Positions 7,517 to 26,107 of a stretch of DNA of 60,468 nucleotides are shown here, one piece after another (positions within the stretch are counted from its first letter, which is position 1; each line of letters opens with the position of its first letter). The notes under the pieces are model-generated. The model ran no database searches and had not been told where the DNA came from. It saw only the letters and a program-made list of their open reading frames with translations. The stretch covers positions 1 through 60,468 of the IMG/VR virus record IMGVR_UViG_3300036793_000054. The stretch is one strand, 5' to 3'. A program made the translations under genes and the position numbers. Source of the stretch: a virus. Its lineage: Duplodnaviria; Caudoviricetes.

Positions 7517-8304
7517 CACATCGCTCGAGGGATATCCGGGCTGAACACCCGCGCCCGGCGCGGCCTGCTCGCCGGGTTGATCGCCGACAGCCACAGGTCG
7601 ACCTTGTAGAGGCCAGTCCGGCCGATCTTGAAGAAGTCCATCGGATCCACCACGGCGATCGACACACCCTGCCGCGACACCGACGTGACCCGCTCCGGCA
7701 GGCGGCAATCCGCCGAGCCGCAGCTGAACAGGTTCAGCTCGTGCGCCAGCTCGACACAGGCGGCCACGCCCGACTCCGGCGCCGCCTCGCCGTAGGTGTA
7801 CTGGATCAAGGTGTCATCGAAGACCTTCGACCAGCGGTCGCCGTCCGTGCGCTCCAGCCAGCCGCCGGGCGAAAGACGCCAGGAGGAGAAGATCTCGCCG
7901 TTGATCGTGACCTGCTCGATCGCGGTCACCTGGTCGTGCGGCAGCTTCACCGCGTACGGGTTCGCCAGCAGCCCCATGTACTGCGGGAACCACGCGAAGC
8001 CGACCATGCTGTTCCACCACCAGTAGCCGGGTCCGGACGGACTCAGGCCCCACTGCCGGTAGTACGGGTAGGCGCCGCTGCCCTGCTCGGGTGGCCGCCC
8101 GCGCAGCTCGGCCGTGTAACTGCAGCCGACCCCCGCCCACTGCTCGCCGGAGAGCTTGTAGAGGATCTCGCTGGCCTGCAGCAGGTAGGACGCCCACTGG
8201 TCATCGGCTTCTTCGCCGCGCCACTGCTCCGGCACGTCGTCCGGGGTCGCCCACGCCCCGCACAGGATCTGGCTGCGCGGGGCGGGCTGACCGGGACTGG
8301 TCAC
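7516..8304 (-). CDS. Head-to-tail adaptor, 262 aa
   Basis: ASEILYKLSG, CRLPERVTSVSRQGVS, RTGLYKVDLWL motifs; GTG overlaps major tail stop. Confidence 0.8.
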   Translation of the reverse strand: MTSPGQPAPRSQILCGAWATPDDVPEQWRGEEADDQWASYLLQASEILYKLSGEQWAGVGCSYTAELRGRPPEQGSGAYPYYRQWGLSPSGPGYWWWNSMVGFAWFPQYMGLLANPYAVKLPHDQVTAIEQVTINGEIFSSWRLSPGGWLERTDGDRWSKVFDDTLIQYTYGEAAPESGVAACVELAHELNLFSCGSADCRLPERVTSVSRQGVSIAVVDPMDFFKIGRTGLYKVDLWLSAINPASRPRRARVFSPDIPRAM

Positions 8305-12069: not shown

Positions 12070-12225
12070 CGCGTATCCCCTTCGCTCGGTCTGTGCACGG
12101 GGCCGACATCAGCCTTGCGGCTGGTGCTCGGTGGACCTATGGACTACCGGCACGGGAAACGCCCCGTCTGCCACGAAGGCTATGACGGGGCGCAACCGGG
12201 ACACTCGGTGTTGCGTACTTGCGGA

Positions 12226-12384
12226 TCAGGCGCTGGAGTCGTCCTCTTTCTCGGTCTTCATCGCGGCCAGGATCTCGTCCGCCGCGCGTCCGGCAGCCGC
12301 CTCCGGTGTGTGATGTGTCGGCAGGTAGTTGTCGAAGTGATCTTCCAGGATGACAATCAGCTTCTCGCGGTCCAGCTTCCTCAT
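12226..12384 (-). CDS. Hypothetical protein, 52 aa (not in ORF track)
   Basis: MRKLDREKLIVILEDHF..., GGAGG upstream. Confidence 0.6.
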   Translation of the reverse strand: MRKLDREKLIVILEDHFDNYLPTHHTPEAAAGRAADEILAAMKTEKEDDSSA

Positions 12385-12397
12385 TGCCGCCTCCGGT

Positions 12398-12619
12398 TCA
12401 GTCGTTGATCGCGTACGGGCTGCGTCCGGCCAGGATGATGCCCGGCTGCAGGTAGGTTCCCGCCTCGCAGGCAGCGAGGTTCGTGGTGATCAAGTGCTCA
12501 TCGCCCAGCTCGGGTGCCGCGATCGTCTTGGCTTGGGTCGCACTCGCCGCGACCACCACGACCTCCCGCGCGTTCGCCCCGGTCTGCACCAACCAGACGT
12601 AGAGCCGATCAATCGTCAT
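12398..12619 (-). CDS. Hypothetical protein
   Basis: Compact ORF, GC3-biased. Confidence 0.6.
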   Translation of the reverse strand: MTIDRLYVWLVQTGANAREVVVVAASATQAKTIAAPELGDEHLITTNLAACEAGTYLQPGIILAGRSPYAIND

Positions 12620-12669
12620 TGATCACCGGCTCGGCACCATCCGACTCGAACGCGGCGTCATACAGATCC

Positions 12670-12966
12670 TCAATGGACATTGGTCTTTGCCTTCCTCGTA
12701 GCGCGGTAGTCGAACCACCAGTTGACCGAGGAGGTGATCAAACCTCCGACGATCACCGCGAGCCAGCCGACCGCGCGCACCGTCCACACGGTGGCGTAGA
12801 AGGTGGCGATGGCGCCACCGACCAGCATCCACAGGCACAGCTCCAGCATCCAGATCCCGAAGATCCAGTAGGCGATGGAGTGGTGACGGCTGCGGTGCCG
12901 CCCGGTCCAGGTGACGGTGTAGCGCAGAATGCGCGGGCCGAACGAACTGGTGATCCGTGATCTCAT
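12670..12966 (-). CDS. Hypothetical membrane protein (leaderless)
   Basis: Hydrophobic helices; ATG 7 nt after TAACAT. Confidence 0.65.
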   Translation of the reverse strand: MRSRITSSFGPRILRYTVTWTGRHRSRHHSIAYWIFGIWMLELCLWMLVGGAIATFYATVWTVRAVGWLAVIVGGLITSSVNWWFDYRATRKAKTNVH

Positions 12967-12973
12967 GGCACCG

Positions 12974-13002
12974 ATGTTACCCGGTCATTCGTCGGGTGAC
13001 AA
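12974..13002 (-). promoter_or_regulatory. Repeated promoter/operator, copy 1
   Basis: TTGTCA-CCCGACGAATGACCGGG-TAACAT. Confidence 0.85.
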
Positions 13003-13152
13003 GGAGAGATCGAGCTGGCGCAGCGCGGCCAGGCGCTCCTCGATCGACACATCGGCCGCCGCCGCCAGCCGACCGAGCACGGACAGGCCGAGCTCCTCGC
13101 CCTCGGGGAACTCTGGCACCAGGTCCGTTGTGCCGTTAATCGTCCCATTCAT
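12985..13152 (-). CDS. Hypothetical protein
   Basis: MNGTINGTTDLV..., ACCGAGGAG RBS. Confidence 0.55.
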   Translation of the reverse strand: MNGTINGTTDLVPEFPEGEELGLSVLGRLAAAADVSIEERLAALRQLDLSLSPDE

Positions 13153-13280
13153 CCGCTCTATCTCCTCGGTCTGTTGTGGCGGGTTCCCCGTCGCCTTGCG
13201 CAGCGACCGCTCCGGCATGCCGACCTCCATCGGACGCGCCCGCCGCCCGGGGTGTGTCAGCACCGAGCGGCGGGGCGAGC

Positions 13281-13649
13281 TCACTTCCTGGTGCGCTTGC
13301 GCTTCACCCCGCGCACCAGCTCCTCGCGGCGCGCGCAGGTCTTCACGTGCTGAATGAACGTCGGATTGCCCGCCGCCCGGTAACCGGCCGCCTGGCCGAT
13401 CGACCCGAACTCGCCCACCTCCGGCAGATCGCCCGGACGCAAGGTCAGCGCCAGCTTGCCCAGCGAGCTCGGCAACGGATCGATCGGCATCCGCTTCGGC
13501 AGCTTGCCCTCCGGCGTGCGCGCGTTCAGGTTCGGTCGCGTCATCACCCAGGCGATCGGCTCGCGGCAGAACTCGCAGGCGGCCAGCTTCAGCCCGTACT
13601 CGTTGACGCCCACCTGCTGCGGGCGCGTGCTCGGCGTGACCTCGAACAT
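13281..13649 (-). CDS. Hypothetical protein with CxxC...HxxxC zinc motif
   Basis: CEFCREPIAW...MPIDP...HVKTC; TGATG overlap. Confidence 0.7.
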   Translation of the reverse strand: MFEVTPSTRPQQVGVNEYGLKLAACEFCREPIAWVMTRPNLNARTPEGKLPKRMPIDPLPSSLGKLALTLRPGDLPEVGEFGSIGQAAGYRAAGNPTFIQHVKTCARREELVRGVKRKRTRK

Positions 13650-13879
13650 CAGGACTTCCACCACTCCATCTTCTTGGCGCGGACCACGCCAGCGATCAAG
13701 AAGTAGTCGGGGCGCTCGCGGACGCGACGGGACCAGTGGAAGCGGTCGCCCTTTACCGCGAGCTTCAGGTGCTCCTCGTTCTCGGCGTAGCGCCACTCGC
13801 TTTCGGGCAGGCGCTGCGACTGCGCCCACTCGGCCGCTTCGTTCTCGTTCAGGGCGAGCACCCAGATCAGGGGTTTCAT
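13649..13879 (-). CDS. Hypothetical protein
   Basis: Overlapping start/stop chain. Confidence 0.65.
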   Translation of the reverse strand: MKPLIWVLALNENEAAEWAQSQRLPESEWRYAENEEHLKLAVKGDRFHWSRRVRERPDYFLIAGVVRAKKMEWWKS

Positions 13880-14343
13880 GTCGTCGCCGGGAAGCGATCG
13901 AGGTAGCGAACCAGGTGCGTCAGGGGCGCCTCGCTCACGTGCACGTCCAGGATGGTGTCCGCGTGCACGGCGGTCATGGCCTGCCAGATCGCATCGTCCG
14001 GATGCGCCCGGTCGTCCACCTGGCCGTCAACCACGGGGCGCGGGCGACCGGGATCCTGGTCGACATCCCAGCACAGGATGATCGTGTGTCCGGTGTGCTC
14101 CAGGCGCGCGGAGGTGACCGAGCCGACGCGTCCCATCGCGAGCGGGCCGAACGCGAGCGGGCCATACGCGACGTGCACCGCGAATCTGCCGGTGTCATCG
14201 GCGGACACACGGCGCTCCAGTAGATCGCGAAAGGCCAGCTCGGCGGTAGCGTGGTAGTGGACTTCAACCGGGGCGGAATCCGCTTCGATCTTCGTCCTGA
14301 TCGAAGCGGTCGCGCCGATGATGATCAGCGGGAGCACGGTCAC
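13876..14343 (-). CDS. Hypothetical protein
   Basis: AGGAG RBS, downstream of promoter copy 2. Confidence 0.6.
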   Translation of the reverse strand: MTVLPLIIIGATASIRTKIEADSAPVEVHYHATAELAFRDLLERRVSADDTGRFAVHVAYGPLAFGPLAMGRVGSVTSARLEHTGHTIILCWDVDQDPGRPRPVVDGQVDDRAHPDDAIWQAMTAVHADTILDVHVSEAPLTHLVRYLDRFPATT

Positions 14344-14367
14344 CTCCTGGTTGTGGTCGTCGCACCA

Positions 14368-14396
14368 ATGTTACCCTCCCAGTGCACGGGAGACAA
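14368..14396 (-). promoter_or_regulatory. Repeated promoter/operator, copy 2 (between divergent genes)
   Basis: TTGTCT-CCCGTGCACTGGGAGGG-TAACAT. Confidence 0.8.
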
Positions 14397-14407
14397 TGGA
14401 GGTCAGC

Positions 14408-14800
14408 ATGCCAGCTATCCCACCCGAGGACATCGAAAACCGGTTCGGCCGGTTGTCCGCGACCGCCGAGTCCGTTGGCGAGAAGATCGTCAGCATCCTC
14501 AAGAACGCGGCACACGAAGTCAACAAGCTGGTAGGTCACGCCAGCCCGTCCGTCCTGTCCATCGTCCAGCGCCTGGAACAGGGGGCACACGTCGCCGTGT
14601 CCGCGCCCGTGCTCCAGGAACCTCACCAGGACCCTCAGCCGCCCGCGTCTACCACGGCGACGGACCCGGGGGCTGGAGCCAGCTCGGAATCGGCAGCTTC
14701 GCCGACCAGCCAGGAGACCGCCAGCCCTTCGCCGAGCGACTCACCCGCCGCGAGCTCCGCGCCGAGCTCGGCGGACTCGGCAACCGAATCGAAAGGTTGA
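14408..14800 (+). CDS. Hypothetical protein with Ser/Ala/Pro-rich tail
   Basis: GGAGG RBS; MPAIPPEDIENRF. Confidence 0.65.
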   Translation: MPAIPPEDIENRFGRLSATAESVGEKIVSILKNAAHEVNKLVGHASPSVLSIVQRLEQGAHVAVSAPVLQEPHQDPQPPASTTATDPGAGASSESAASPTSQETASPSPSDSPAASSAPSSADSATESKG

Positions 14801-14808
14801 TCCAGATC

Positions 14809-15135
14809 ATGACCGATGCACTTCAGACCGCCCTGACCGATCTCACCAGCGTGACCGGTGACGTGGTCGCCGAGCTGTCCAGCCTGTCCAGCCAGCTGCA
14901 GGCCGCGCTCGCCAGTGGCGACACCGCCGCCCTGCAGTCCGCTGCCGACCAGATCGAAACCCAGGTGGGCACCCTGCGCACCGCGCTGGCCTCGGCAACG
15001 CCAGCGCCCAGCGGATCCACCACGGGAGCTCCGTCCACAGGTGGGGATACCTCCAGCGCGCCGCAGTCGGGCGGCACCACCAGCGATACGACCGCCGCGC
15101 CGGAGCAGCCGCAGACCGGTAGCCCGATGGGCTGA
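14809..15135 (+). CDS. Hypothetical coiled-coil protein (may be a -1 frameshift extension of the upstream gene)
   Basis: MTDALQTALTDL...; frame open far upstream. Confidence 0.65.
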   Translation: MTDALQTALTDLTSVTGDVVAELSSLSSQLQAALASGDTAALQSAADQIETQVGTLRTALASATPAPSGSTTGAPSTGGDTSSAPQSGGTTSDTTAAPEQPQTGSPMG

Positions 15136-15171
15136 TAGCCTGCCGGTCGGCATCTAGCCGATGTAACCGCC

Positions 15172-15202
15172 GAAAGCCCCCCGGCAGCAACGGGGGGCTT
15201 TC
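15172..15202. terminator. Terminator hairpin between convergent genes
   Basis: GAAAGCCCCCCG-7nt-CGGGGGGCTTTC. Confidence 0.8.
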
Positions 15203-15208
15203 GCATGC

Positions 15209-15430
15209 TCAGGCGGCGAGCCGCTTCAGGCAGGCCTTGCAGGTGACCGGCCGCTTGGTGGCGTAGTAGACGACGCCCCGGTTACTGAAGGTGCCGGTCC
15301 GCGCGTTGTGCCCGGTCGGACGGCACAGGGTCTTCTCGGTGCTGCCACGGTGCATCGGGTCGCCGGGCACACCCGCGTGGACCAGGTTGGTGGTGTAGAC
15401 GTTGACGCTGGTGGCCTCGGCTTCGCTCAT
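15209..15430 (-). CDS. Hypothetical zinc-binding protein (leaderless)
   Basis: VH...TLC...VTCKACLK; ATG 7 nt after TAACAT. Confidence 0.7.
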   Translation of the reverse strand: MSEAEATSVNVYTTNLVHAGVPGDPMHRGSTEKTLCRPTGHNARTGTFSNRGVVYYATKRPVTCKACLKRLAA

Positions 15431-15437
15431 AGGAACG

Positions 15438-15466
15438 ATGTTACCCCTCTGGTCGCCGGGTAACAA
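15438..15466 (-). promoter_or_regulatory. Repeated promoter/operator, copy 3
   Basis: TTGTTA-CCCGGCGACCAGAGGGG-TAACAT. Confidence 0.85.
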
Positions 15467-15484
15467 TAGTCTGTGACCTGCGAC

Positions 15485-15805
15485 TCAAGCCTGCGGGATC
15501 CAGGTCTCCAGCTCCTGGCCGTTCGCCCGGTCATACACCAGCCGTTGCGGGATGAACACCCGATCCAGCCGCCGCGCCTCATGACCCAGCGCCGCGACCT
15601 TGACCTCCATTACGTGCCGCACGATCGCCTCCTGGGTATTGCACTGGGCCGCCAGCGTCTTGCCGCGCTTGAAGAACGCCAGGCCCTTGTCCGGGTGCAC
15701 CTCCCACCAGTAGCCCGCGTAGCAGGCCACCAGGCCAGTATTCGGCCGTAGCGCCAGCTCCCACGGCAGGTAGGTGATGTTGGCCGCCGTGATCAGGTCG
15801 CCCAT
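15485..15805 (-). CDS. Hypothetical protein
   Basis: GAGGAGG RBS. Confidence 0.7.
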   Translation of the reverse strand: MGDLITAANITYLPWELALRPNTGLVACYAGYWWEVHPDKGLAFFKRGKTLAAQCNTQEAIVRHVMEVKVAALGHEARRLDRVFIPQRLVYDRANGQELETWIPQA

Positions 15806-15860
15806 GTTGTCCTCCTCGAATTCGATGTTTGTCCAGCAGTACGCGTGTCATCCTTGACGC

Positions 15861-16007
15861 ATGGACGCGGTAGAGCGCGCGGTCGCCGAGCGGATCGCCC
15901 GCCGAGCACGCCAGCGCGCCGAGGTGGCCGCCGAGCGGCTCGCCTTCGAGGCCAACCGCAAGGCAGGCCTGGAGCGCCGCAAGGCTGCGAAGATCAAGCA
16001 GACCTGA
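15861..16007 (+). CDS. Possible small basic protein, 48 aa
   Basis: MDAVERAVAERIARR...; fills gap, no clear RBS. Confidence 0.35.
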   Translation: MDAVERAVAERIARRARQRAEVAAERLAFEANRKAGLERRKAAKIKQT

Positions 16008-16161
16008 TGTTCCGGCCCCACACGCCGCACACCTGTCTGCCGGTGTGCACGTTGATCAGCTCATAGACGCCGTCGTAGGTGCCAGTCACGCGCCACTTCG
16101 CGCCGTGGTAGATCACGATGTCGCTGATGTGGGGATCCCGGGGGACAGTGGTCTCCGTCAT
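15994..16161 (-). CDS. Hypothetical protein
   Basis: MTETTVPRDP..., ATGA overlap. Confidence 0.6.
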   Translation of the reverse strand: MTETTVPRDPHISDIVIYHGAKWRVTGTYDGVYELINVHTGRQVCGVWGRNIRSA

Positions 16162-16355
16162 GCCTGCACCGCCTGGAGAGCCTGGTGATAGGCCACCTTC
16201 GCCTCGGGGGTGATCCGCCACTCGCCATGCGCGGTCCGCACCACCACCTCGCGCATGGTGCAGCGCACTACCTCGCCGTCATCGAGCGTGACGACGCGCC
16301 AGCCGCCCGCCACGCCGATCTCCAGTTTCACGATGGTCTTCGGTGTCTCGCTCAT
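16158..16355 (-). CDS. Hypothetical protein
   Basis: GGAGG RBS. Confidence 0.6.
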   Translation of the reverse strand: MSETPKTIVKLEIGVAGGWRVVTLDDGEVVRCTMREVVVRTAHGEWRITPEAKVAYHQALQAVQA

Positions 16356-16371
16356 GCCTCCAAACTAGCCC

Positions 16372-16400
16372 TTGTGTCCCGGTCCGTCAACGGGTAACTT
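16372..16400 (+). promoter_or_regulatory. Repeated promoter/operator, copy 4
   Basis: TTGTGT-CCCGGTCCGTCAACGGG-TAACTT. Confidence 0.8.
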
Positions 16401-16435
16401 GGTATCCATCAGCCCAACGCACCGAGGAGCCCACA

Positions 16436-16687
16436 GTGAGCACCAAGATCACCAAGCTGACCGAAGCCAACATCCAGGCCCTGAACCTCGTCATCGGCAA
16501 CGACGCGCTGGTGCAGCTCACTGCGACCACCGCGACCTTCGTGGACGAAGGAACCGAGCTGATCGAGTGGTGGTCGGGGATCATGAGCCGGGTTGCCGCC
16601 AAGCACGGTCGGCACGGTCACCCGTATGCCTCGCTGCACGCGGTCACCCGCAAGGTCAACAAAGCCGCTCAGGCCAACAAGCGTTGA
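16436..16687 (+). CDS. Hypothetical protein
   Basis: ACCGAGGAG RBS, GTG start. Confidence 0.7.
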   Translation: MSTKITKLTEANIQALNLVIGNDALVQLTATTATFVDEGTELIEWWSGIMSRVAAKHGRHGHPYASLHAVTRKVNKAAQANKR

Positions 16688-16743
16688 TCATCCAGCCGGG
16701 CGCCCACCGAGGCGCCCGGCTTCGTTCCCCCGAGGAGGACGCC

Positions 16744-17034
16744 ATGAGCAAGCCGAAGCGGTTCGGGTTCCAGGAAGGTCAGCCGCACGTGGTGCCGGTG
16801 CGCCAGACCGCACAGCACACGATCACCTGGTCCACCGAGTGGTCTGGCTGGCGCTGGGTCGCCCCCGGCTGGGAGATCGGCCGCGTGCGCGCTGGCGGGC
16901 TCGGCGGCCACCCTGCCGGTACACGGTCGGAGTACCACCTGAACCGCGTGAGCGAGGACGGTCAGCGTCAGGTGGTCGACATCGTGGACTCGCTGGGTGC
17001 GGCGAAGCGGCGCGCCGAGGAACTGTCGGAGTAG
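16744..17034 (+). CDS. Hypothetical protein
   Basis: CCGAGGAGG RBS. Confidence 0.7.
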   Translation: MSKPKRFGFQEGQPHVVPVRQTAQHTITWSTEWSGWRWVAPGWEIGRVRAGGLGGHPAGTRSEYHLNRVSEDGQRQVVDIVDSLGAAKRRAEELSE

Positions 17035-17051
17035 TCGCAGGTAAGTGACCC

Positions 17052-17081
17052 TTGTGTCCCGGTGGAGTGAGGGGGTAACAT
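17052..17081 (+). promoter_or_regulatory. Repeated promoter/operator, copy 5
   Basis: TTGTGT-CCCGGTGGAGTGAGGGGG-TAACAT. Confidence 0.85.
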
Positions 17082-17088
17082 GGACTTC

Positions 17089-17325
17089 ATGGGCGAGACC
17101 AGCTACCAGACGGACCTCTACCGGCAGACCTGCACCTGCCCCGCCGGGCAGTATGGCCGCCCGTGCAAGCACCTCCGCGCGCTCGCCGACCAGCAGACAG
17201 CCGATGAGGCCAAGGTCGCCAATGCGCAGGCACGCTGGGATCGCGAAGTCCAGATCCAGCAGGCCGCCCGCGCTCGCGAGATCGCCCGCAGCCACTTCTC
17301 CGCCACCTACCCCGAAACGGACTGA
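17089..17325 (+). CDS. SWIM-type zinc finger protein (leaderless)
   Basis: CTCPAGQYGRPCKHL fits CxC-x-CxH. Confidence 0.7.
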   Translation: MGETSYQTDLYRQTCTCPAGQYGRPCKHLRALADQQTADEAKVANAQARWDREVQIQQAARAREIARSHFSATYPETD

Positions 17326-17327
17326 TC

Positions 17328-17561
17328 ATGAATAAGCTCTCGCCGAGGATGACCGACCAGCTGCTGTGGATGGCTGAGCAGCTCGCGCACGGCGGCAGGT
17401 GCGGATCCCTCGAACCGCAGCGCATCGCACTGATGTCCCGGGGCCTGATCGACTTCGCCACCGAGGACGACGCGCACAAGCAGACGCGCAACCGCACCCT
17501 CACCCTCACCGAAGCGGGGTGGCTGAAGGTCAAGGAGATCCGGGAAAACCTCGGCAAGTGA
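17328..17561 (+). CDS. Hypothetical protein, winged-helix-like C-terminus
   Basis: ALMSRGLI...LTLTEAG. Confidence 0.6.
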   Translation: MNKLSPRMTDQLLWMAEQLAHGGRCGSLEPQRIALMSRGLIDFATEDDAHKQTRNRTLTLTEAGWLKVKEIRENLGK

Positions 17562-17770
17562 GCAAGTAGGCCCCATGGTGCACCGCTTCGGCGGTGGGGA
17601 GGTTCGTCTCCTCCCGGGGTCACGCGGTCAGTGGGAACACGCATCCTCGCGGTGCGCTCGGCCCCGAGAAGCAGGGAAGCCGTCAGGCCCCGTAGATCCG
17701 GTTCTGCCGGTGAAGCTGAAGCCCCATCCGGGGGCTGACCGTGACGATCTTTCACACCGAGGAGTCGATC

Positions 17771-18070
17771 ATGAGCTTGACCAAAATGTATGCGCTGACC
17801 TGCGATAACTGCGGGCGCCTCCAGCAGGACGGCCGCCAGGTCTATTCCACCAGCACCGAGGCTCGGCGCAAGGCCAGGGCGGCGGGTTGGGAGCGCCTCC
17901 AGCACCCAGAGAACGTGCGCCAGGGGCTCACGTCAGCTGACAACGTGTCGCATCGGCGGGACTTCTGCAGGATGTGTGCGCCGATCGTCCGCGAGGCCCT
18001 GGCCGAGATCGGCAAGGATCAGGAGCGCGCCGCCCGCGCGAAGGCCTACGCGGATCGGGTCGGCCGGTGA
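17771..18070 (+). CDS. Hypothetical zinc-binding protein
   Basis: CDNC...ARAAGW...DFCRMC; ACCGAGGAG RBS. Confidence 0.7.
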   Translation: MSLTKMYALTCDNCGRLQQDGRQVYSTSTEARRKARAAGWERLQHPENVRQGLTSADNVSHRRDFCRMCAPIVREALAEIGKDQERAARAKAYADRVGR

Positions 18071-18312
18071 CGACTCGCGAGGATCTGGCCGCGACCGCGC
18101 GCGAGCACGGTTGGACGCCGCTCAGGGTCAGCTGGTGGCGCTCGGACCGGTGGTCGCGCGGCGCCGAGCAGGTGATCGTGATCTTCACCGACAGCGGGCG
18201 CGTGTCGCAGGCGAGCCTGCTGCGCGACCGGATCCAGACGGAAGCGGTCTACGCGACGAATAGGAGCTATTCGGACAAGGTTGCGAAGGTATCGAGCTGG
18301 CTCACCAACTGA
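18067..18312 (+). CDS. Hypothetical protein
   Basis: GTGA overlap. Confidence 0.6.
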   Translation: MTTREDLAATAREHGWTPLRVSWWRSDRWSRGAEQVIVIFTDSGRVSQASLLRDRIQTEAVYATNRSYSDKVAKVSSWLTN

Positions 18313-18337
18313 GACTATCGCCACAGGTAGAACGGCA

Positions 18338-18366
18338 TTGTGTCCCGCTGGTACGTCGGGTAACAT
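18338..18366 (+). promoter_or_regulatory. Repeated promoter/operator, copy 6
   Basis: TTGTGT-CCCGCTGGTACGTCGGG-TAACAT. Confidence 0.85.
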
Positions 18367-18396
18367 GGTCTTATCACCCCAACCGAGGAGGACCAC

Positions 18397-18714
18397 ATGG
18401 CCGCCAACACTCGCACTCCGCGCGAGGCTGCCGACGCTGAAGCCGCCCAGCGCGCCCGCGCCAACGGCGAGCGTCTGCGCGCCACCACTACGCGCGAGTC
18501 TCGCGAAGCCGCCGCCAACCAGCTCGCCGAGGTCGACCAGCAGATGATCGCGCTGGACCAGCTGCACACTCAGCTGTCCGCGCGGGGCGCCTACTCGGCC
18601 GCCACCCGCGTGCACGAGCAGTGGCGCACGCTAGCGATCCAGCAGGCCAAGCTGGCGGCGAAGGCCGAAGCCGACGCTGAGTCTGGCTACCTCGCCCAGG
18701 GTATCGAGCTCTGA
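18397..18714 (+). CDS. Hypothetical coiled-coil protein
   Basis: ACCGAGGAGG RBS. Confidence 0.7.
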   Translation: MAANTRTPREAADAEAAQRARANGERLRATTTRESREAAANQLAEVDQQMIALDQLHTQLSARGAYSAATRVHEQWRTLAIQQAKLAAKAEADAESGYLAQGIEL

Positions 18715-18719
18715 ACGCG

Positions 18720-18757
18720 GCGAGACCCCGGCATCCCCCTTGGTGCCGGGGTCTCGC
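18720..18757. terminator. Terminator hairpin between convergent genes
   Basis: 14-bp stem GCGAGACCCCGGCA/TGCCGGGGTCTCGC. Confidence 0.8.
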
Positions 18758-18836
18758 GCTGCCTGGGTGGCCGCCGGGCGGAGCTGGCGCCGTGCTTGGT
18801 GGCTTCAGCCGGGGGTACCCGGCGACCGAGGGCAGC

Positions 18837-19094
18837 CTACTCGTCCGCGCCGAACACCTGGTTGCGTGCGCGCCGTGCGTCCCGGATCAGCTTGTTCAGG
18901 CCGTCCCGGTCCAACTGGATGTAGTCGCCCGCCAGGAACGTTTGCTCATCGAAGCTCGGCGTGTCGGCCGTGCCTTCGTGGTGCTCGGTACGCACCTCGC
19001 CGACCGTCATCTGCACGAACTGGCCTTCGCGGGACCAGGACAGTTCGCCCCGGTACTGCTCGGTACCCCGATGCCGGATGATCTCTTTGGGCAT
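18837..19094 (-). CDS. Hypothetical protein
   Basis: GGAGGG RBS; LDRDGLNKLIRDARRARNQVFGADE. Confidence 0.7.
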   Translation of the reverse strand: MPKEIIRHRGTEQYRGELSWSREGQFVQMTVGEVRTEHHEGTADTPSFDEQTFLAGDYIQLDRDGLNKLIRDARRARNQVFGADE

Positions 19095-19138
19095 GTCGCC
19101 CTCCCTTCACGGAGCGGCCTCGCGCCGCCGAGGAGAGC

Positions 19139-20020
19139 TTAGCCGCCGCAGACCAGCACGCCGTTGACTTGCGTGGTGGCCAGGCCGCTCGGTTCGGTGA
19201 TGTTCGTGGTGCTCGGCGCGCTGCCGTTCGGGCACACCTGCGCTTGCGGCACCGGACCGGCATCCGACGTGGTGCCGTCCGAGTAGGTGACGATCATGTG
19301 CCCGGCACTGTTGAGCACCACCGAGGACACGCTGACCCCATTGGATCCGTCCGTCCCGTTTGCTCCATTGGCTCCGTTTGCTCCAGCCGCGCCAGTCGCG
19401 CCCGCAGGCCCCACCACGTTGCCCAGGTCGCTACTCGTGCCGTCCGAGTACGTCACCACCAGATCCGTGCCGACGATCGCGGAGCCGGTGATCCCGCGCC
19501 CGTCCTTGCCGTCCGCGCCCTTGATGCCCTGCGGTCCGGTCACGGTGCCCACGTCGGCGCTCGTGCCATCCGTGTACACCACGATCAGGTCGCCGTTGAA
19601 CAGGTGCGTGGAGGCGATGCCGCGACCCGGCTGACCGTTGCTGCCGTTCGCGCCGGACGGTCCAGCCGGTCCACTCGGCCCAGGGATCTCGATTGCCGAC
19701 TGCACCTTGCTCGCCTGGGTGCACGCGCCCGCCGCGTTCAACTGGGTGGCCGCCACGCCGCCCTGGTCGCACACTGACTGGACCTGACCGGCCAGCGGCG
19801 CCGCCTGGCTCTGGACCGCCGTCACCCTCGCGTCCGAGCTGTCCGCGTGATCCTGGGTCTGGCTGGCCAGGCTCACGAACCACAGGCTGGCCACGAACAG
19901 CAGCGCCAGCACCAGTGCGATCACCGCGCCCACCCAGTACGTCGGCACCTGGATGTGGAAGCGGTCGCGCCACGTCTGTCGGCGCTGCTGCTGAGTCGGT
20001 CCCGCGCTGTGCTCGCTCAT
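19139..20020 (-). CDS. Membrane-anchored collagen-like protein
   Basis: TM helix, Gly-X-Y runs, three LxVxY(S/T)DGTxxDxG repeats, Cys pairs. Confidence 0.8.
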   Translation of the reverse strand: MSEHSAGPTQQQRRQTWRDRFHIQVPTYWVGAVIALVLALLFVASLWFVSLASQTQDHADSSDARVTAVQSQAAPLAGQVQSVCDQGGVAATQLNAAGACTQASKVQSAIEIPGPSGPAGPSGANGSNGQPGRGIASTHLFNGDLIVVYTDGTSADVGTVTGPQGIKGADGKDGRGITGSAIVGTDLVVTYSDGTSSDLGNVVGPAGATGAAGANGANGANGTDGSNGVSVSSVVLNSAGHMIVTYSDGTTSDAGPVPQAQVCPNGSAPSTTNITEPSGLATTQVNGVLVCGG

Positions 20021-20358
20021 GGGTGACCTGGTTTCGGTTGCCCCTCCAAGGCCTGGATCACGTCCACGATCCGGGCCAGCTCGATGTTCCCTTCGCCTTC
20101 CGCCTTGCCAGCCAGGTAGTCCACGCTCAACTCCTTGGGGATCGGCGGCCAGCCGGGGTGAGTGTCCCACCCTTCGCGCGCGGCCAGCAGGTCCACCGCG
20201 TACATCCTGCGCGCATAGGCGACATTTGTGACCCGAAGTTCCCGCAGCTCGCGTGCCTCACGGCCGAGCCGCCGAGTACGGAAGGTCATCAGCGTAACCA
20301 GCAGGAACAACACGCCGGTCAAGATCGGGATCAGCGTGGACAGTGCCGTGAGGCTCAT
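20017..20358 (-). CDS. Membrane protein (1 TM)
   Basis: N-terminal hydrophobic helix; ATGA overlaps. Confidence 0.65.
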   Translation of the reverse strand: MSLTALSTLIPILTGVLFLLVTLMTFRTRRLGREARELRELRVTNVAYARRMYAVDLLAAREGWDTHPGWPPIPKELSVDYLAGKAEGEGNIELARIVDVIQALEGQPKPGHP

Positions 20359-20786
20359 CTTGCACCTCTCGCCGCCACGTCTTCCGCTTCCGCCAACGCG
20401 CCCCCCACAACGCCGAAGATGACCGCCAGCACGCTCGCCGCCGCCGGAAACGTGACCGGCAGCAGCGGGCTCGGCGCGAATGCCGCGAACCACAACTCGG
20501 TGGCGTAGAACGCCCAGACCGCGCCCGCCACCGCGTGTGCCTGCGGCCGATAGCGCTCATAGAACCAGGTGATCGCCAGGAACAGCGCGGACATGCCGAA
20601 CGCGAACAGCCACCACCAGTTGAGGTCGGTCAGCCGGGCGACCTGGGCTTGCGCCACCGGCACGCCCCGCAGCGCGATGCTGGTGCTCACGTGCAGCAGC
20701 GCGAAGATCAATTGCAGACCCAGGAGCACGCCGGACAGCAGGCGCGAGGCCAGGTGTCCGGCGTGTAGGCCCCGGGTAAACGGCAT
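20355..20786 (-). CDS. Multi-pass membrane protein
   Basis: About four hydrophobic helices. Confidence 0.65.
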   Translation of the reverse strand: MPFTRGLHAGHLASRLLSGVLLGLQLIFALLHVSTSIALRGVPVAQAQVARLTDLNWWWLFAFGMSALFLAITWFYERYRPQAHAVAGAVWAFYATELWFAAFAPSPLLPVTFPAAASVLAVIFGVVGGALAEAEDVAARGAR

Positions 20787-20788
20787 GA

Positions 20789-20995
20789 TCAGCTGCTGGC
20801 CAGGAGTTGGCCGAGCACGATCGCCGCGAACACCAGCGCCAGCCCCGCGCAGGCACCGACCAGGATCCACCAGGCAGTGACGGCAGGGTTGCGCGGCTCG
20901 ACTCGCCGAGCGGCCAGGAACGTCGCGATCAGCAGGCCGAGCGCGACCAGCAGCGCGCCCAGGTCACCGAGCAGGGACAGCGTGAAAGTGGACAT
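20789..20995 (-). CDS. Small membrane protein (2 TM)
   Basis: MSTFTLSLLGDL..., TGATG overlap. Confidence 0.6.
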   Translation of the reverse strand: MSTFTLSLLGDLGALLVALGLLIATFLAARRVEPRNPAVTAWWILVGACAGLALVFAAIVLGQLLASS

Positions 20996-21594
20996 CAGGC
21001 AGCCTTCTTTCCGTGGTGTGCCTTGAATAGCGCGCGACCCTTGGGAGTGGCCAGCATGACGTTCGTCGTCTCGCCTGCCGCCTTCGGCCCCACGTACTTC
21101 AGCAGCAGGGCGTGCAGCGTGGTCCATGGGTTCGCCGAGCTCATCCACTTCGCCGCGCCCTTGCCACGCGTCCAGTATGTCCACAGCGGGTGACCAGGGC
21201 CGAAGGGCAGCTTGGATGCCCACGGCCAGACCGGCGGATTCGCCAGCGACCAGGCCTCGTCCGCCTCGGCGCTGTACTCATCCAGGCTGATCAACGACAG
21301 CTTCGAGCCGCGCGATTTGATCTCGTCCTTGACCGCCTGGTGCGCCTTGGACACCGCACCCGGACGGCCGAGCAGCTGGGCACGCCGCTGGAACTCCTTG
21401 TCGATCTCCTTCAGGTGCGGTGTCTCGGTGTCCTTCAGATCCTTGCGCGCCTTCGCCGTGGACGTGTGCTGCGCCAGCTTGTCGGCCGCGCTGGACACGC
21501 TGGCGACCGAGCTACCACCGACCTTGATCCACCCGTGGATGTAGCCGCCCGGCCCAACGAAGCTGCCCGGCTCTACCGGGCCGAGGCGAAAGGG
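20995..21594 (-). CDS. Protease-associated extension domain, probably expressed by -1 frameshift
   Basis: Frame open to slippery site at 21594; VGPGGYIHGWIKVG lies upstream of the first start codon (21498); LWTYWTRGKGAAKW motif. Confidence 0.7.
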   Translation of the reverse strand, partial: PFRLGPVEPGSFVGPGGYIHGWIKVGGSSVASVSSAADKLAQHTSTAKARKDLKDTETPHLKEIDKEFQRRAQLLGRPGAVSKAHQAVKDEIKSRGSKLSLISLDEYSAEADEAWSLANPPVWPWASKLPFGPGHPLWTYWTRGKGAAKWMSSANPWTTLHALLLKYVGPKAAGETTNVMLATPKGRALFKAHHGKKAA

Positions 21595-23444
21595 TCGATA
21601 CCGAGACTCTCCAGCGCAGCCGTCTTGCCGATCGCCAGCAGCGCCGCGCTCTTACGGTCCGCCATGCCCGGCTCGGCTCCCTCGTCACCCTCGTCCCCCG
21701 CGTCGTCGTCGTTGTCCAACGGCCGATCGATATCCCCGTCGTTGTCCGGGTCGAAGAACGCGATCAGCGCCGCGTTGACCGCCTGAGTGACCTGGCCGAT
21801 CGTGATCCCGCCGCCCGGCACGAACTCGCGCGGCGCCTGCAGTAGGCCAGCCGCCACCAGGCTCACCGCCTCGCCACTGGCCACCCGCGAGCGCGGCACC
21901 GGGTAGCCAGGCGTGTTCACGCTCAAGATCGCGCACAGCTCGAGGTTGCCGCCATGGTTGCGCCAGTCTCCCGAGGGCGGGCTGGACAGCAGTCGGTCCA
22001 CCTCGGCCTCCGACAGCGCCGCCGTGAGGCCATGGATCCAGATGCCGTGCGCGTCCTCGCCAGCGGCCACGTCCGCGACCGCCAGGCACTGGTTGTCGTA
22101 GAAGGCCACCGTCTCGGCCTCGGACAGGGTCGGCCCCGCGTGCCCGCCGGTTGCCGCATCCCGGGACATGCTGATGTGGCCCACCGCGACGGTGCGCTGC
22201 TCGCCGGTCTCGTCCACTACCCTGGCCGCGCCGGTCGCGAACCGCGCGTAGTCGGTGCGGGTGTGCGGGGGACGAACACAGCGCCCGGAATAGGAGACGT
22301 GGCACTCGTTCCAGGTGGCGATGTGGCCGCTGATCTCGCGGCGCCCGTCCGCGCGCGGCTGCCCGATCACGATCGGGGTGGGTGCGCCCAGGTGTGGATC
22401 GGAGAAGATCGCGATGCCGGGCAGTTCGTGCACCGGCTCGGCGCCTGCGGTCAGCGAACCATCGGCCTTCCAGTTCTCCGGCAGCATCTTCTCCAGGCCG
22501 AGGCTCTTGGCCGCTTTGATGATGTGGCGCCGGATCGCGTTGTGCGCGGAGTCGCCACCGTTGCCGCGCCCCACGGCCTTGATCGCCTTGGTGAGGTCGC
22601 TGCCGTTCTCCACCGGGTATCGGGCGTCGCCGTCGCTCTTGCCGGGCAGCGGCGGCATCGCCAGACCCTTGCCCAGGGCGCGCTTGCGCTTGGTGGCGTC
22701 CGGCGTGTCGGCGAGCTCGTAGCCGTCCCGGTCGTAGCCGAGCAGGCAGATGCCGCATTCGTCGCCGAGGTCGGCCGCGCGGAAAGGCGCCAGGGTGAGC
22801 GTCTCGTAGCCGCTGGCGACCAGGGCGGGATCGCCGTCCGGCTCGAGCTGGCCGCCGCCCACTTCCACGTAGGCCTCCTTGAACGCGGGGATCGGGCACA
22901 GCGTGGTCGCGGCGATGGTGCCCTTGGTGATGTTGATCTCCGGCTTGTCGTCCTCGGCGAACGACTCGTCATAGTCGACATCGGACAGGTCCACCGAGTT
23001 GCCGCGCAGGTGACCCTGCCGCGCCAGCTTGCCGCCGGTCGTCTCCGGATCCGCCACCCCCTCGCCCTGCCAGATGAACGTGCCCTCGGGGAATGGCTCG
23101 CCGGTCTGGCGGCTAGTCACCTCCGGACCGGGCGTGCGCCAGATCTTCGTCAGGTGCCCGATCACCTCGGCGCCCGCGTGGCCGCCCTCCTGGCCCGGGT
23201 TCGTGTACTGGGCCAGGATCGAGATCGGCAGCGCGCGGTGATCCAGCGCGTCCGCCGCGATCGTCCGGCCGTCGCTCGTGCTGGCGCCCTCCACCACCAG
23301 ACAGGGGAAGAACAGCGGCAGCTCGCCCTGCTCGTTCAGGTCCGACCCGACCTCGGGGGCCGCGTCGGCAGGGGTCGGCTGTGCCTTGCCCGCGCTCGCC
23401 TGCTTCTTGGCCATGATCGTCTCCCTCACGCTACGTTCAACCAC
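21573..23444 (-). CDS. Capsid maturation protease-like protein (start 23444 or 23414)
   Basis: VEGASTSDGRTI, GHAGAEVIGH, SVDL, ATTLCPIPAFKEA; C-terminal GHIATW, GEDAHGIW, SGDWR, VNTPGYP; follows portal. Confidence 0.8.
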   Translation of the reverse strand: MVERSVRETIMAKKQASAGKAQPTPADAAPEVGSDLNEQGELPLFFPCLVVEGASTSDGRTIAADALDHRALPISILAQYTNPGQEGGHAGAEVIGHLTKIWRTPGPEVTSRQTGEPFPEGTFIWQGEGVADPETTGGKLARQGHLRGNSVDLSDVDYDESFAEDDKPEINITKGTIAATTLCPIPAFKEAYVEVGGGQLEPDGDPALVASGYETLTLAPFRAADLGDECGICLLGYDRDGYELADTPDATKRKRALGKGLAMPPLPGKSDGDARYPVENGSDLTKAIKAVGRGNGGDSAHNAIRRHIIKAAKSLGLEKMLPENWKADGSLTAGAEPVHELPGIAIFSDPHLGAPTPIVIGQPRADGRREISGHIATWNECHVSYSGRCVRPPHTRTDYARFATGAARVVDETGEQRTVAVGHISMSRDAATGGHAGPTLSEAETVAFYDNQCLAVADVAAGEDAHGIWIHGLTAALSEAEVDRLLSSPPSGDWRNHGGNLELCAILSVNTPGYPVPRSRVASGEAVSLVAAGLLQAPREFVPGGGITIGQVTQAVNAALIAFFDPDNDGDIDRPLDNDDDAGDEGDEGAEPGMADRKSAALLAIGKTAALESLGIDPFASAR

Positions 23445-26107
23445 TCGTCCCGGATGCGCAGCACCCGGTCACGCATATCCCTGGTCTGCTGGGCCGTTGT
23501 GCCGGTGCGCCCGGCCGCGTCGTCCATCTCCGCCAACCGCCGGATGTCGCGCATCGCCGGGGTCTCCGGCTGCTGCGCGGCGGCGATCGAGTCCCGCAGC
23601 TCGGGGTCCATGTCGCTGGCGTTCTGCGGGAAGATCCAGGCCTGGACGACGTGACACCGGCAGCCGTCGTGATCGCCTGGGTGGTAATAGTCACCCAACC
23701 ACGCGGTTGCCTTGCTGGTGGCCAACCGCGCGTCGCTCATCGAGTCGTACCGGTGATCATCCAGCGCCTTGTGCGGGTGGAACGTGTTGCGCGGATCCGT
23801 GCCGTACACCCACATGTAGCCGAACGCCGGACCAGCCTTCGCGGTGATCAACTCGGTGATCGTGCCGCCCAGCGCCAGGCCGCCCAGTGGCGCCGAGCTC
23901 GAGCCGCCTTCCTTCAGGCCTGCCGGTGCGCCGCCGATCGTGGCCAGCGCCGTGCGGATGTCGCCCGCGCGCACCACGTCGTCCGGGTTCGCCTCGCCGG
24001 TCGGCGCGTGTCCCTCACGGCCATACAGCCGATCCATGGTGCGCTGCTTGAGCTGCTCGTGCAGCTGGTGCCAGGCGCCGCGCTGTCGGCCGGTGAACGT
24101 GCGCCGCAGTGCCGAGACCGCGCCGAGCTCGAGGTTGAGCAGCTTCTGGGCGACCAGGCAGGCGTTCTTGATCGCATCGGCGGTCCAGGCGATGAACTTC
24201 GCTTCGAGGTAGGCGAACGCGGCGGCCAGCAGTGCGTCCTCGGTGACACCCAGCTCGGCCACCTTGTCCGGGCCGAGGAAGGCAGCGAGATCATCGGCGT
24301 GCTCGGCCAGGTCGCCCTTGTCGATCTTGCGCTGTGCCGCCGAGCGAATCCGCGCGTTTGCTTTTTCGATGGCGCGCGCGATCGCCGCGTCGGCCGCGAC
24401 CGTGAGCCGCTCCAACAGTGCCGTGTCGATGGCGGCCAGCTTGTCACCTGTGATCACCCGCAGCGCTGGTACCGCCGTGGTACCAGCCGCCGTGAGCGCG
24501 AGCTGCTCGCTCATCCGTCCGGTACCACTGCTCGGTGGCGGGCTCGGGTTCTGGTGCGGGATCGAGCCAGCGCCCGGCTTGGCCTCCGGATGTGCGGGCA
24601 GTGCCGCGCGCTGCGGTGGCGTCACCTGGTTCTGGCCGTTCGCCGGACTCGGTACCACCGTGGTACCACTACCGGCGGGTGGCGGGATCGTGATGCCCGC
24701 GCCGGGCAGCAGCCGGGCGATCAGCGTGGCCGCCGTGGTCGGGTCGGTGCTGACCTTGCTCGCCAGCATCTTGATCAAGTCGTCGTTGGTGGGCTCATCG
24801 TCGACGTTGAAGCCGAGCGCCTCGCGCAACGTCTGGCCGCTGATCTGGAAGCGGTCGTATGCGTCCTTCGCGTCCTGCGCGCGGTTCGCGTTCTCCGTGA
24901 CCTTGCCTGCGTCGTACCAGACAACGACCTGTTCGACCTCTTGCGGGTCCAGGCCGTAGCCACCCTCGGTGACCGGCTGAATCAGGCTCGGCCGCAGGTA
25001 GCCCTCGGTGAAGCTGTCGACGATCATCCGCACGCCGGGCTCGAGGTGGTTGCGGAACGTCGTTGCGTCGATCACGTACGCGTTCCAGTGATTGGTGTCC
25101 TGCAGGCCGGTCACCACGGTGGGCGGCACGTCGATCGACTCGGCCATGCGGGTCAGCGAGCGCTCCAGCTTGTCGTTCAGGTCGGCGCTGGTCTCGCGCT
25201 CGAACGTGACGTGCCGGACCGCCTCGATGTCTTCCTTGTCCGCTTCGACGATGATCGGCGCGACCGCGCCACCCTCACCCTCGTTGACGATCGGCGCCAG
25301 GATCGCCGCGTTCAACTCCTGCACGAAGTCCTGTTCACCCTGCTTGTCGTCCGCCCCGAACGGAGACTTCAGGCTCATGTTCTGGGTGACGAACAGGATG
25401 CCGTTCGCCGCGATCCGGCTGCGCGCCGCCGCCCGCAGCTCGCGACCGGACAGGATGATGTCCTCCAGCACGTCCTGCAGGCTGCGCAGCGGGCTGTCCG
25501 ACAGCTTCTTGAACCTCGGGTGCGGCACCCACAGCCGGATCAAAACCTCGGTCTTCGGATCGATCTTGCGACCGGCACGCCCCGGCACCTCCACGATGCC
25601 CAGCGTCGCGCCCGACCCCATCGGCTGCACCTCGTCAGTCGAGAGGATCTGCCAGCGCTCCTTCTTCGTCGCCGGGTCGGTGCTGCCGTGCAGCCAGCCC
25701 TCACCCGCGATCGAGAAGCAGGTATCGGCCACGCCCATGAAGCCGTAGCCGTTGCGCCACGGCAGCTTGTTCAGTGCGTCCTGGGCAGCCTTCTTCAGCG
25801 CTGGCGAGAGCGTGCACTTGTCCGAGTCGACATCGATCGGCTCATCCTCGCCTTCGACCACCTGGCCGATCTTCAGTGCCACCTTGGAGATCGCGTTCGC
25901 CCGGAAGCGCATCGCGCCCGCCAATTCCGGCACCAGATCCCGATAGTCCCAAGCGTGCGTTTGCCAGCCCATCCGCATCGCGGTCAGCGTGTTGACCACC
26001 TTGCGGTTCGTGAGATCGATCCGCGCGCCCGACGCCGTCATCACGCCAGCGGCAACCTTCTTGCCGTCCGGGCCGATGATGCGCTGAGCACCCCACGATC
26101 CGCTCAC
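23426..26107 (-). CDS. Portal protein fused to MuF-like domain, 893 aa
   Basis: WQTHAWDYRDLVPEL, IRLWVPHP, DSPLRS, NHWNAY portal motifs; Pro-rich linker; C-terminal HPGDHDGCRC. Confidence 0.88.
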   Translation of the reverse strand: MSGSWGAQRIIGPDGKKVAAGVMTASGARIDLTNRKVVNTLTAMRMGWQTHAWDYRDLVPELAGAMRFRANAISKVALKIGQVVEGEDEPIDVDSDKCTLSPALKKAAQDALNKLPWRNGYGFMGVADTCFSIAGEGWLHGSTDPATKKERWQILSTDEVQPMGSGATLGIVEVPGRAGRKIDPKTEVLIRLWVPHPRFKKLSDSPLRSLQDVLEDIILSGRELRAAARSRIAANGILFVTQNMSLKSPFGADDKQGEQDFVQELNAAILAPIVNEGEGGAVAPIIVEADKEDIEAVRHVTFERETSADLNDKLERSLTRMAESIDVPPTVVTGLQDTNHWNAYVIDATTFRNHLEPGVRMIVDSFTEGYLRPSLIQPVTEGGYGLDPQEVEQVVVWYDAGKVTENANRAQDAKDAYDRFQISGQTLREALGFNVDDEPTNDDLIKMLASKVSTDPTTAATLIARLLPGAGITIPPPAGSGTTVVPSPANGQNQVTPPQRAALPAHPEAKPGAGSIPHQNPSPPPSSGTGRMSEQLALTAAGTTAVPALRVITGDKLAAIDTALLERLTVAADAAIARAIEKANARIRSAAQRKIDKGDLAEHADDLAAFLGPDKVAELGVTEDALLAAAFAYLEAKFIAWTADAIKNACLVAQKLLNLELGAVSALRRTFTGRQRGAWHQLHEQLKQRTMDRLYGREGHAPTGEANPDDVVRAGDIRTALATIGGAPAGLKEGGSSSAPLGGLALGGTITELITAKAGPAFGYMWVYGTDPRNTFHPHKALDDHRYDSMSDARLATSKATAWLGDYYHPGDHDGCRCHVVQAWIFPQNASDMDPELRDSIAAAQQPETPAMRDIRRLAEMDDAAGRTGTTAQQTRDMRDRVLRIRDEWLNVA

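Follow-up and report, generated by a model that had tools for sequence, protein, structure and literature searches.

The virus record IMGVR_UViG_3300036793_000054, analysed here over its whole length of 60,468 bases (hereafter, the window), has, at the end of the gene for its head-maturation protease, what is likely to be a programmed -1 ribosomal frameshift site. As judged by a comparison with related sequences, the site is conserved in at least ten related phage lineages, and it very probably extends a fraction of the protease molecules with an additional C-terminal part encoded in the -1 frame.

The protease gene lies on the minus strand. Its zero-frame open reading frame (ORF; 21573..23444) has 623 codons from the first GTG, but translation may in fact begin with the ATG at codon 11. 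The 3' end of the ORF reads GAC CCT TTC GCC TCG GCC CGG TAG, where the triplets GAC CCT TTC contain, in the zero frame, the slippery heptamer C_CCT_TTC (21588..21594). A spacer of six bases, GCCTCG (21582-21587), separates the heptamer from the hairpin GCCCGG-TAGAG-CCGGGC (21565..21581). The arms of the stem, GCCCGG and CCGGGC, occupy positions 21581-21576 and 21570-21565, and the loop TAGAG (21575-21571) holds the zero-frame stop codon TAG of the short, unshifted protease (21573..21575), situated 15 bases after the heptamer. In the -1 frame, no stop codon occurs from 21651 up to the TGA at 20997-20995. The -1 extension (20995..21591) comprises 198 codons, counting the re-read TTT, followed by this TGA, and the predicted long isoform contains 618 + 198 = 816 residues. 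The -1 frame encodes PFRLGPVEPGSFVGPGGYIHGWIKVG before its first ATG, GTG or TTG, which is a GTG at 21496..21498, and LWTYWTRGKGAAKW later on. No Shine-Dalgarno-like run was found 5-10 bases before this GTG, the nearest one, GGTGG, being 17-21 bases upstream. The 74 bases from the protease stop to the GTG have, when read in the -1 frame, a G+C content at third codon positions (GC3) of 0.88, compared with 0.58 and 0.62 for the two remaining frames. Since the genes of the window range from 0.80 to 0.94, this stretch bears a coding signature in the -1 frame. All the elements listed by an earlier sequence-only reading of this DNA, namely the protease end, the heptamer, the spacer, the hairpin, the open -1 frame and the GTG at 21498 lacking a ribosome-binding site, were found where that reading had placed them.

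These features suggest the following course of translation. Most ribosomes would terminate at the TAG, yielding a protease of about 623 residues, and a fraction would slip back by one base on C_CCU_UUC, the pairing changing from CCU to CCC in the P site and from UUC to UUU in the A site. The hairpin six bases downstream, perhaps together with the stop codon in its loop, probably assists the slip. The shifted ribosomes would read 197 further codons in the -1 frame, up to the TGA. The resulting protease would have about 816 residues, and its C-terminal extension would consist of the VGPGGYIHGWIKVG motif, a helical middle module and a four-helix domain of about 75 residues with the signature LWxYWTxGxG, in this order. 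We infer, with good support from the comparison described below, that a fixed minority of ribosomes shifts and makes the form of about 816 residues. According to the simultaneous-slippage model, CCC and UUU are still readable by the same tRNAs after the shift. Transcriptional slippage is known at long runs of A or T, and runs of three bases are too short for it. As stated in passages of Sharma et al. (2014; PMC4066793), C_CC.U_UU.C leads to "high level frameshifting" in E. coli, and H_HH.U_UU.Y ranks with the most efficient motifs in the presence of a stimulator.

Taken alone, the heptamer of the window is within the chance level, in-frame X_XXY_YYZ heptamers occurring 132 times in 68,464 codons (about 1 per 519) of related protease ORFs; it is the comparison with relatives that lifts the finding above chance. 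The comparison set included 94 loci with relatives of the protease (L numbers), found in 14 viral contigs and 80 metagenome contigs. A hidden Markov model (HMM) of the LWxYWTxGxG domain was built from 26 database hits, and the database proteins are referred to by P numbers. In the 94 loci, in-frame C_CCT_TTY was found 16 times in the 68,464 codons, and 12 of these occurrences are located 6-11 codons before the protease stop, one is located at the junction of an in-frame fusion and three are located elsewhere. The 12 loci represent ten lineages (less than 90% protease identity), and each possesses an open -1 extension of 80-136 codons. The proteases sharing the site are 38-85% identical pairwise, with the exception of one trio at 97-100%. 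The expectation of the sequence-only reading that CCCTTT would be conserved at protease 3' ends was thus borne out, as it is kept at the same place in 12 of the 94 loci, with proteases down to about 40% identity. A relative's contig from run X2, which belongs to another study, has a loose end at 21609 that likewise reads CCCTTTC on the gene strand.

In nine of the 12 heptamer loci, the extension is the LWxYWTxGxG domain of the window. Conversely, this domain was detected at or just after the protease in 13 of 95 sequences, the window included. Ten of the 13, again including the window, encode the domain in the -1 frame and have C_CCT_TTC (once C_CCT_TTT) in the zero frame within the overlap. 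Two more (L025 and L026) encode it as a separate gene, the GTG of which overlaps the protease TGA (GTGA), and contain no heptamer, and in the remaining one (L112), the domain is fused in frame. A fourteenth case, L094, demonstrated only weak matches to the domain, situated inside a giant ORF.

The choice of codons at the site is distinctive. Elsewhere in the ten heptamer ORFs, CCT accounts for 21 of 451 proline codons (4.7%), versus ten of ten at the site, and the other Pro-Phe pairs of these ORFs are encoded by CCG_TTC (eight), CCC_TTC (six), CCA_TTC (two) and CCT_TTC (one). The codon preceding the CCT of the site ends in C in all ten sequences, versus a background of 47%. These sequence data indicate that selection acts on the bases at the site, beyond the requirement for Pro-Phe.

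The same region might be read as two ordinary genes, with the protease ending at the TAG, a separate protein of 167 residues starting at the GTG at 21498, and the heptamer and hairpin being incidental. The GTG is present, the ORF beginning with it has a GC3 of 0.87, gene callers yielded free-standing homologues of the domain (e.g., P0002 and P0005), and L025 and L026 encode the domain separately. This arrangement nevertheless seems very unlikely for the window. It would have to do with no Shine-Dalgarno-like run at the usual distance from the GTG, and the 74 bases upstream, with the GC3 given above, encode a motif that is conserved in many phage proteins. In eight of the ten -1-frame loci, window included, there is no ATG, GTG or TTG between the heptamer and the domain, and in six of the ten, the whole open -1 frame up to the domain is free of such codons. 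Free-standing homologues of the domain begin with M..S.L.[FY]G.G, so initiation at the sole candidate start in L023 would truncate the domain. The choice of CCT would also be left unexplained. Independent initiation at 21498, which had been set out beforehand as the competing expectation, is thus disfavoured: it would remove a motif conserved as protein, and most relatives have no start at all.

Termination followed by reinitiation, or initiation at an unusual start codon near the protease stop, would likewise give a separate protein with no frameshift. Such coupling of genes is common in phage late operons, and L025 and L026 use a GTGA overlap; in the window, the -1 frame continues without interruption across the stop, which is only 15 bases after the heptamer. 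This explanation is nevertheless highly improbable. The heptamer is invariant in an aligned region where no near-cognate start is conserved. The distance from the heptamer to the stop varies from 6 to 11 codons, and the heptamer is kept. Besides, the junction of the in-frame fusion falls precisely on the Pro-Phe of the heptamer. This fusion (P0012/L112), of the kind anticipated among relatives by the sequence-only reading, has a protease 52% identical to that of the window, which runs ..VVHPF-DLGGELAASRLPYGPGSKLWKYW.. into the domain carried in the same frame, and the junction (..VVHPF-DLGG..) falls at the same Pro-Phe.

An assembly or sequencing indel, or a decayed gene, could also place the domain in another frame, the true gene being an in-frame fusion in the first case and the domain being dead in the second. 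The record was assembled from a metagenome, the site contains short homopolymer runs (CCC, TTT) and the fusion in L112 demonstrates that an in-frame version exists. The same frame arrangement, however, was found in 12 other contigs from many samples, and the -1 frame retains both its coding signature and an intact conserved domain, which makes an artefact or decay extremely unlikely. A second assembly of the probable source run crosses the site and agrees letter for letter (0 differences), but it is not independent.

Several observations weigh against a frameshift, or against particular parts of the signal. The window and L027 do have ordinary start codons before the domain. The bases near the site are constrained by both overlapping frames, and this could explain part of the conservation, but not the choice of CCT. 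The close relatives L025 and L026, the proteases of which are 78% identical to that of the frameshifting L027, carry the domain as a separate gene. Covalent linkage of the protease and the domain is therefore not essential, and linkage, as far as can be judged from the sequences, is one of several workable solutions. The efficiency of the heptamer is known from E. coli only and may not hold in the host of the window phage. The remaining points concern the hairpin. The local fold is no more stable than that of shuffled sequence (z = -0.21), and in the window there is a competing, more stable pairing with the downstream GGGCCGGGCGGC. In the hairpin subgroup (the window, L023, L024, L027 and L028, all with a spacing of six bases), all six pairs are held in all five sequences, with one compensatory change of GC to AU (L027) and one change of GC to GU (L024), but 93 of 500 shuffles match this conservation, which comes from five sequences only. 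Outside the subgroup, the heptamer loci do not have the hairpin in this form. L108-L111 and L113, which possess the heptamer and the same domain, lack this hairpin and do not have it replaced by a common structure that would be an obvious substitute, and L109 and L110, with proteases 97% identical, share no structure at all. An upstream Shine-Dalgarno-like stimulator common to the heptamer loci was not found either. It seems that the hairpin is a probable local enhancer and not a defining part of the signal.

The predicted extension has a modular structure, and all of its modules are encoded on the minus strand. The motif VGPGGYIHGWIKVG (21517..21558) lies upstream of the first start codon of the -1 frame. 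A near-identical stretch of 14 residues, VGP[KE]GYIHGWIKVG, is present in other phage proteins, as was found in 15 of the 20 loci obtained in the motif search; 13 of these open frames are 520-1910 residues long and two contain 241 residues. A sixteenth locus, L021, has the variant VGPEGYVHGWVKV. In the motif-bearing loci (L006-L021), the motif is located, for example, at 3001-3063 in L011, 3001-3060 in L019 and 3001-3066 in L008. Some phage genomes have three or four copies of it. In database proteins, the motif follows a MuF domain in P0064 and precedes a Zeta-toxin domain in P0126, and it was also found close to the N-terminal end of small proteins. It might serve for cleavage or docking, or mark the border between modules.

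The middle module (..LKEIDKEFQRRAQLLGRPGAVSKAHQAVKDEIKSRG..; 21289..21489, borders approximate) is helical (..LGRPGAVSKAHQAVKDEI..) and recurs in many phage proteins, often in several copies per protein (query residues of about 11-99). In one case (L014/L015, open frame 3-2051), a phage protein of 682 residues includes the middle module and a stretch ..YTANDYYSLNGQLRGGN.., which we take to resemble ADP-ribosyltransferase toxins. The extension of the window is longer than the extensions of its relatives. Between the protease end and the domain, a relative's contig from another study (run X3) has 89 letters versus 371 in the window (21237-21609), and, since this relative lacks both the GYIHGW motif and the middle module, the two look like an insertion into the extension.

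The C-terminal LWxYWTxGxG domain (about 75 residues; 21004..21219) is predicted to consist of four helices, as modelled with a mean predicted local distance difference test (pLDDT) score of 79.5. The domain HMM matches the window at E 3.6e-33, and 135 representative proteins match the domain at E <= 0.001. In some of them, the domain is free-standing. It was also found at the C-terminus of proteins that, by eye, are similar to HK97-type portals (P0009, P0015 and P0061), before or after a prohead protease (P0021 and P0051 with Pfam Peptidase_S78; P0006, P0008 and P0016 by eye), after MuF in P0064 and after a Pfam ADP-ribosyltransferase module in P0133. The portal, prohead protease and MuF proteins carrying the domain are presumably all proteins of the head interior. 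The extension matched phrog_6439 in the PHROG database, which is annotated as of unknown function. A Foldseek search with the domain model found nothing in the PDB at E <= 0.001, the BFVD search gave weak rows only, the best of them being an uncharacterised protein of phage Mendokysei (E 0.014), and the ESM Atlas returned unnamed clusters at 0.77. A tblastn search with the extension of the window found only four phage records, all of them free-standing ORFs.

Other weak BFVD rows led to the capsid proteases of cultured phages, but this relationship was not confirmed, as the domain HMM misses both OneinaGillian gp22 and BruhMoment gp19. In these two phages, a small gene following the protease gene is situated in the -1 frame, but it has its own ATG and there is no heptamer; no frameshift was found there.

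The TGA of the extension in the window overlaps the ATG of the next small gene (TGATG, 20993-20997), which fits translation of the extension frame. The product of this small gene begins with MSTFTLSLLGDLGALLVALGLLIATFLAA, which looks like a membrane helix.

The LWxYWTxGxG domain is not the only one attached to the protease at this place. In L030, L114 and L115, C_CCT_TTY at the same Pro-Phe leads into a -1 frame (4156-4569 in L030, 4165-4524 in L114 and 4246-4611 in L115) that encodes quite another domain (..GGLPKFIKRI..AIATAVNVVKKMC..), and in L115, the first start codon after the heptamer falls inside the domain. This second domain (AIATAVNVVKKMC) is found in frame at the protease C-terminus in eight loci (L029, L031, L033, L034, L080, L084, L088 and L091). 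A tblastn search with the second domain type yielded six records, all of them inside annotated genes, three of which are annotated as maturation protease genes. In L036 (1621-1962), the heptamer C_CCA_AAA, six codons before the protease stop, leads to a third domain (..RIRWGTPGDFTRCV..), and this third domain (RIRWGTPGDFTRCV) is carried in frame at the C-terminus by L048. One candidate of this kind was rejected: CCCAAAG in L063 and L064 appears there by chance, as the long -1 frame merely belongs to the following gene, which has an ATG of its own, and the near-identical L062 does not contain the heptamer.

The in-frame fusions display a further feature. The DNA at the L112 junction, CAC CCT TTT GAC, retains the heptamer, and ribosomes slipping into the -1 frame there would immediately encounter a TGA. 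By analogy with dnaX, such a slip would yield a short form of the protein, which we regard as a lead. In L099 and L104 (CCCAAAA) and in L073 (GGGAAAA), a heptamer is also present just after the protease core, with a stop in the -1 frame within 0-3 codons. The heptamers in the fusions L112, L099, L104 and L073 could thus provide a dnaX-like route to a short form. Apart from this, residues 1-190 of P0012/L112 constitute an extra N-terminal domain with two motifs of the H-x-T/A type (..LHCTLTFLG.. and ..PHIAAAY..), which, in our view, recall 2H phosphoesterases (LigT-like). The BFVD rows named "RNA ligase" in Gordonia phages may reflect the same N-terminal fusion.

The identity of the zero-frame product was assessed by several searches. 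The PHROG search matched the protease to phrog_18402, "head maturation protease" (6.4e-33), and to phrog_859 (3.9e-59). The tblastn search found 866 phage records, belonging mostly to Mycobacterium, Gordonia, Microbacterium and Arthrobacter phages, and the top matches, with 25-40% identity, are annotated as capsid maturation proteases, which is annotation and not the result of an assay. No Pfam match was found for the protease or for the extension (E <= 0.01), and Peptidase_S78 was not hit by the protease. The PDB sequence search with the protease profile gave no matches at E <= 1, and a prophage scan of genome contigs with the protease found no relative. A structure model of residues 330-560 was obtained using 58 homologues (pLDDT 81). 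Its best structural match was the T4 prohead protease gp21, with a modest score (Z 6.2, root-mean-square deviation 3.6, 126 residues aligned), and rows 2-19 were herpesvirus maturation proteases with Z of 3.6-5.1, values that can also reflect a common arrangement. Foldseek alone gave E values of only 0.13-1.3 for this model. The SGDWR motif is invariant in the 58 protease sequences and several histidines are kept in at least 90% of them. The structural scores are modest, but the list of matches is uniform, and "maturation protease" is accepted here, by annotation and predicted fold, as the best name for 21573-23444.

The window represents a whole virus record rated complete, with a G+C content of 67% and nearly all genes on the minus strand. 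The sequencing run containing the window in full is labelled as a soil metagenome. As the tblastn matches of the protease are mostly phages of actinobacteria, the window appears to be the genome of an uncultured phage with an actinobacterial host. The morphogenesis genes recognised by PHROG matches include those of the large terminase (43558-45252, phrog_38), the portal (23426-26107, phrog_776), directly upstream of the head-maturation protease (21573-23444, minus strand), the major head protein (10135-12069, phrog_777), the head-tail adaptor (7516-8769, phrog_783) and the tape measure protein (2434-5100, phrog_305 and phrog_58). The genes of the protease and the major head protein are separated by a gap of about 9 kb (12100-21000), filled mostly with small genes of unknown function, which is unusual spacing for a head module. 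This gap includes four plus-strand ORFs (17080-18714) and a gene for a collagen-like protein (19139-20170, phrog_1806). A tail assembly chaperone pair of the λ G/GT type, that is, two small ORFs immediately preceding the tape measure gene, was rejected as an explanation of the site, which lies at 21.5 kb between the portal and head genes, the tape measure gene being at 2434-5100.

In tailed phages, -1 frameshifting is textbook knowledge for tail chaperones and a few capsid genes. In phage T7, a -1 frameshift at the end of head gene 10A gives 10B, a C-terminal extension on a minority of the capsid molecules incorporated into the head. The site described here is similar in that a head gene is involved and a minority of molecules would be extended at the C-terminus, but the shifted protein of T7 is a capsid subunit, and here, it is an enzyme acting inside the prohead. 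The HK97 protease gp4 has a C-terminal capsid-targeting tail, and internal proteins of phage T4 bear a capsid-targeting sequence cleaved by gp21. These are short C-terminal or N-terminal modules deciding what is packed in the prohead with or by the maturation protease, as the predicted extension may be. Neither the Foldseek search of the PDB nor the BFVD search found any sequence or fold relation of the extension domain to the HK97 gp4 tail or the T4 internal proteins.

The tail chaperone frameshift of phage λ, gpG/gpGT (Xu, Hendrix and Duda 2004, cited in PMC7302621 and PMC4378225), is comparable in several respects. There, too, a gene for phage morphogenesis has a -1 slip on X_XXY_YYZ close to its 3' end, which yields a minor fusion, extended at the C-terminus, at a fixed ratio; the downstream ORF has no start of its own, and the arrangement is conserved across very diverged phages. 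The proposed site differs in that the gene encodes a head-maturation protease, the heptamer is C_CCU_UUY and at least three small domains are interchangeable as the extension, being attached in frame in other relatives. E. coli dnaX (tau/gamma) also combines a heptamer with a downstream structure (mentioned in PMC4066793), but the shift in the window would lengthen the protein and not shorten it, and dnaX is best compared with the in-frame L112. The in-frame fusions (P0012/L112, P0006, P0008, P0016, P0021, P0051, P0009, P0015, P0061 and P0064) place the same domain of about 75 residues on a head-interior protein. In these fusions, every molecule has the domain, whereas the window would provide only a fraction of the molecules with it.

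The full-text literature, in the portions covered, yielded no mention of frameshifting in a phage protease gene; the five prophage clusters with conserved sites listed in PMC4066793 (tables S4 and S5) lay outside this comparison. The GYIHGW string was not found there in a relevant sense. The comparative actinophage papers, in the passages covered, mention frameshifts only for tail chaperones and a transposase. What is proposed here is, in this respect, an ordinary recoding mechanism at a class of genes where it is undocumented, with interchangeable cargo.

As to the function, our preferred guess, made tentatively and by analogy, is that the frameshift sets a low and fixed ratio of protease carrying a head-interior module, which may serve as cargo or as a docking element. 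The guess is prompted by the fusion of the same domain elsewhere to portal, prohead protease and MuF proteins, presumably all of the head interior, and by the functional analogy with the HK97 gp4 tail and the T4 internal proteins. A broader reading is possible, but it is rather doubtful. It holds that, in this family of actinophage head proteases, the 3' end of the gene is a general loading dock, where at least three unrelated domains are attached either in frame or by a conserved -1 slip, and that recoding sets the number of module copies per capsid. In-frame lineages would continue to produce the long and the short protein, in a ratio that is the reverse, as for dnaX, and the VGPKGYIHGWIKVG motif, common to many large phage proteins linked to MuF, toxins or proteases, would be a shared cleavage or docking signal.

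If the proposed frameshift is real, the maturation protease would be added to the classes of genes known to possess conserved -1 sites. It would also explain the "orphan" ORFs with no start codons that are situated just after protease genes and are now missed or truncated by gene callers. One silent base change should abolish the long form, and this would offer a handle on the role of the domain, on the counting of proteins in the prohead and on the possible delivery of such domains to the host together with the DNA. The frameshifted, fused and separate versions found among close relatives would constitute a natural series for the study of stoichiometry.

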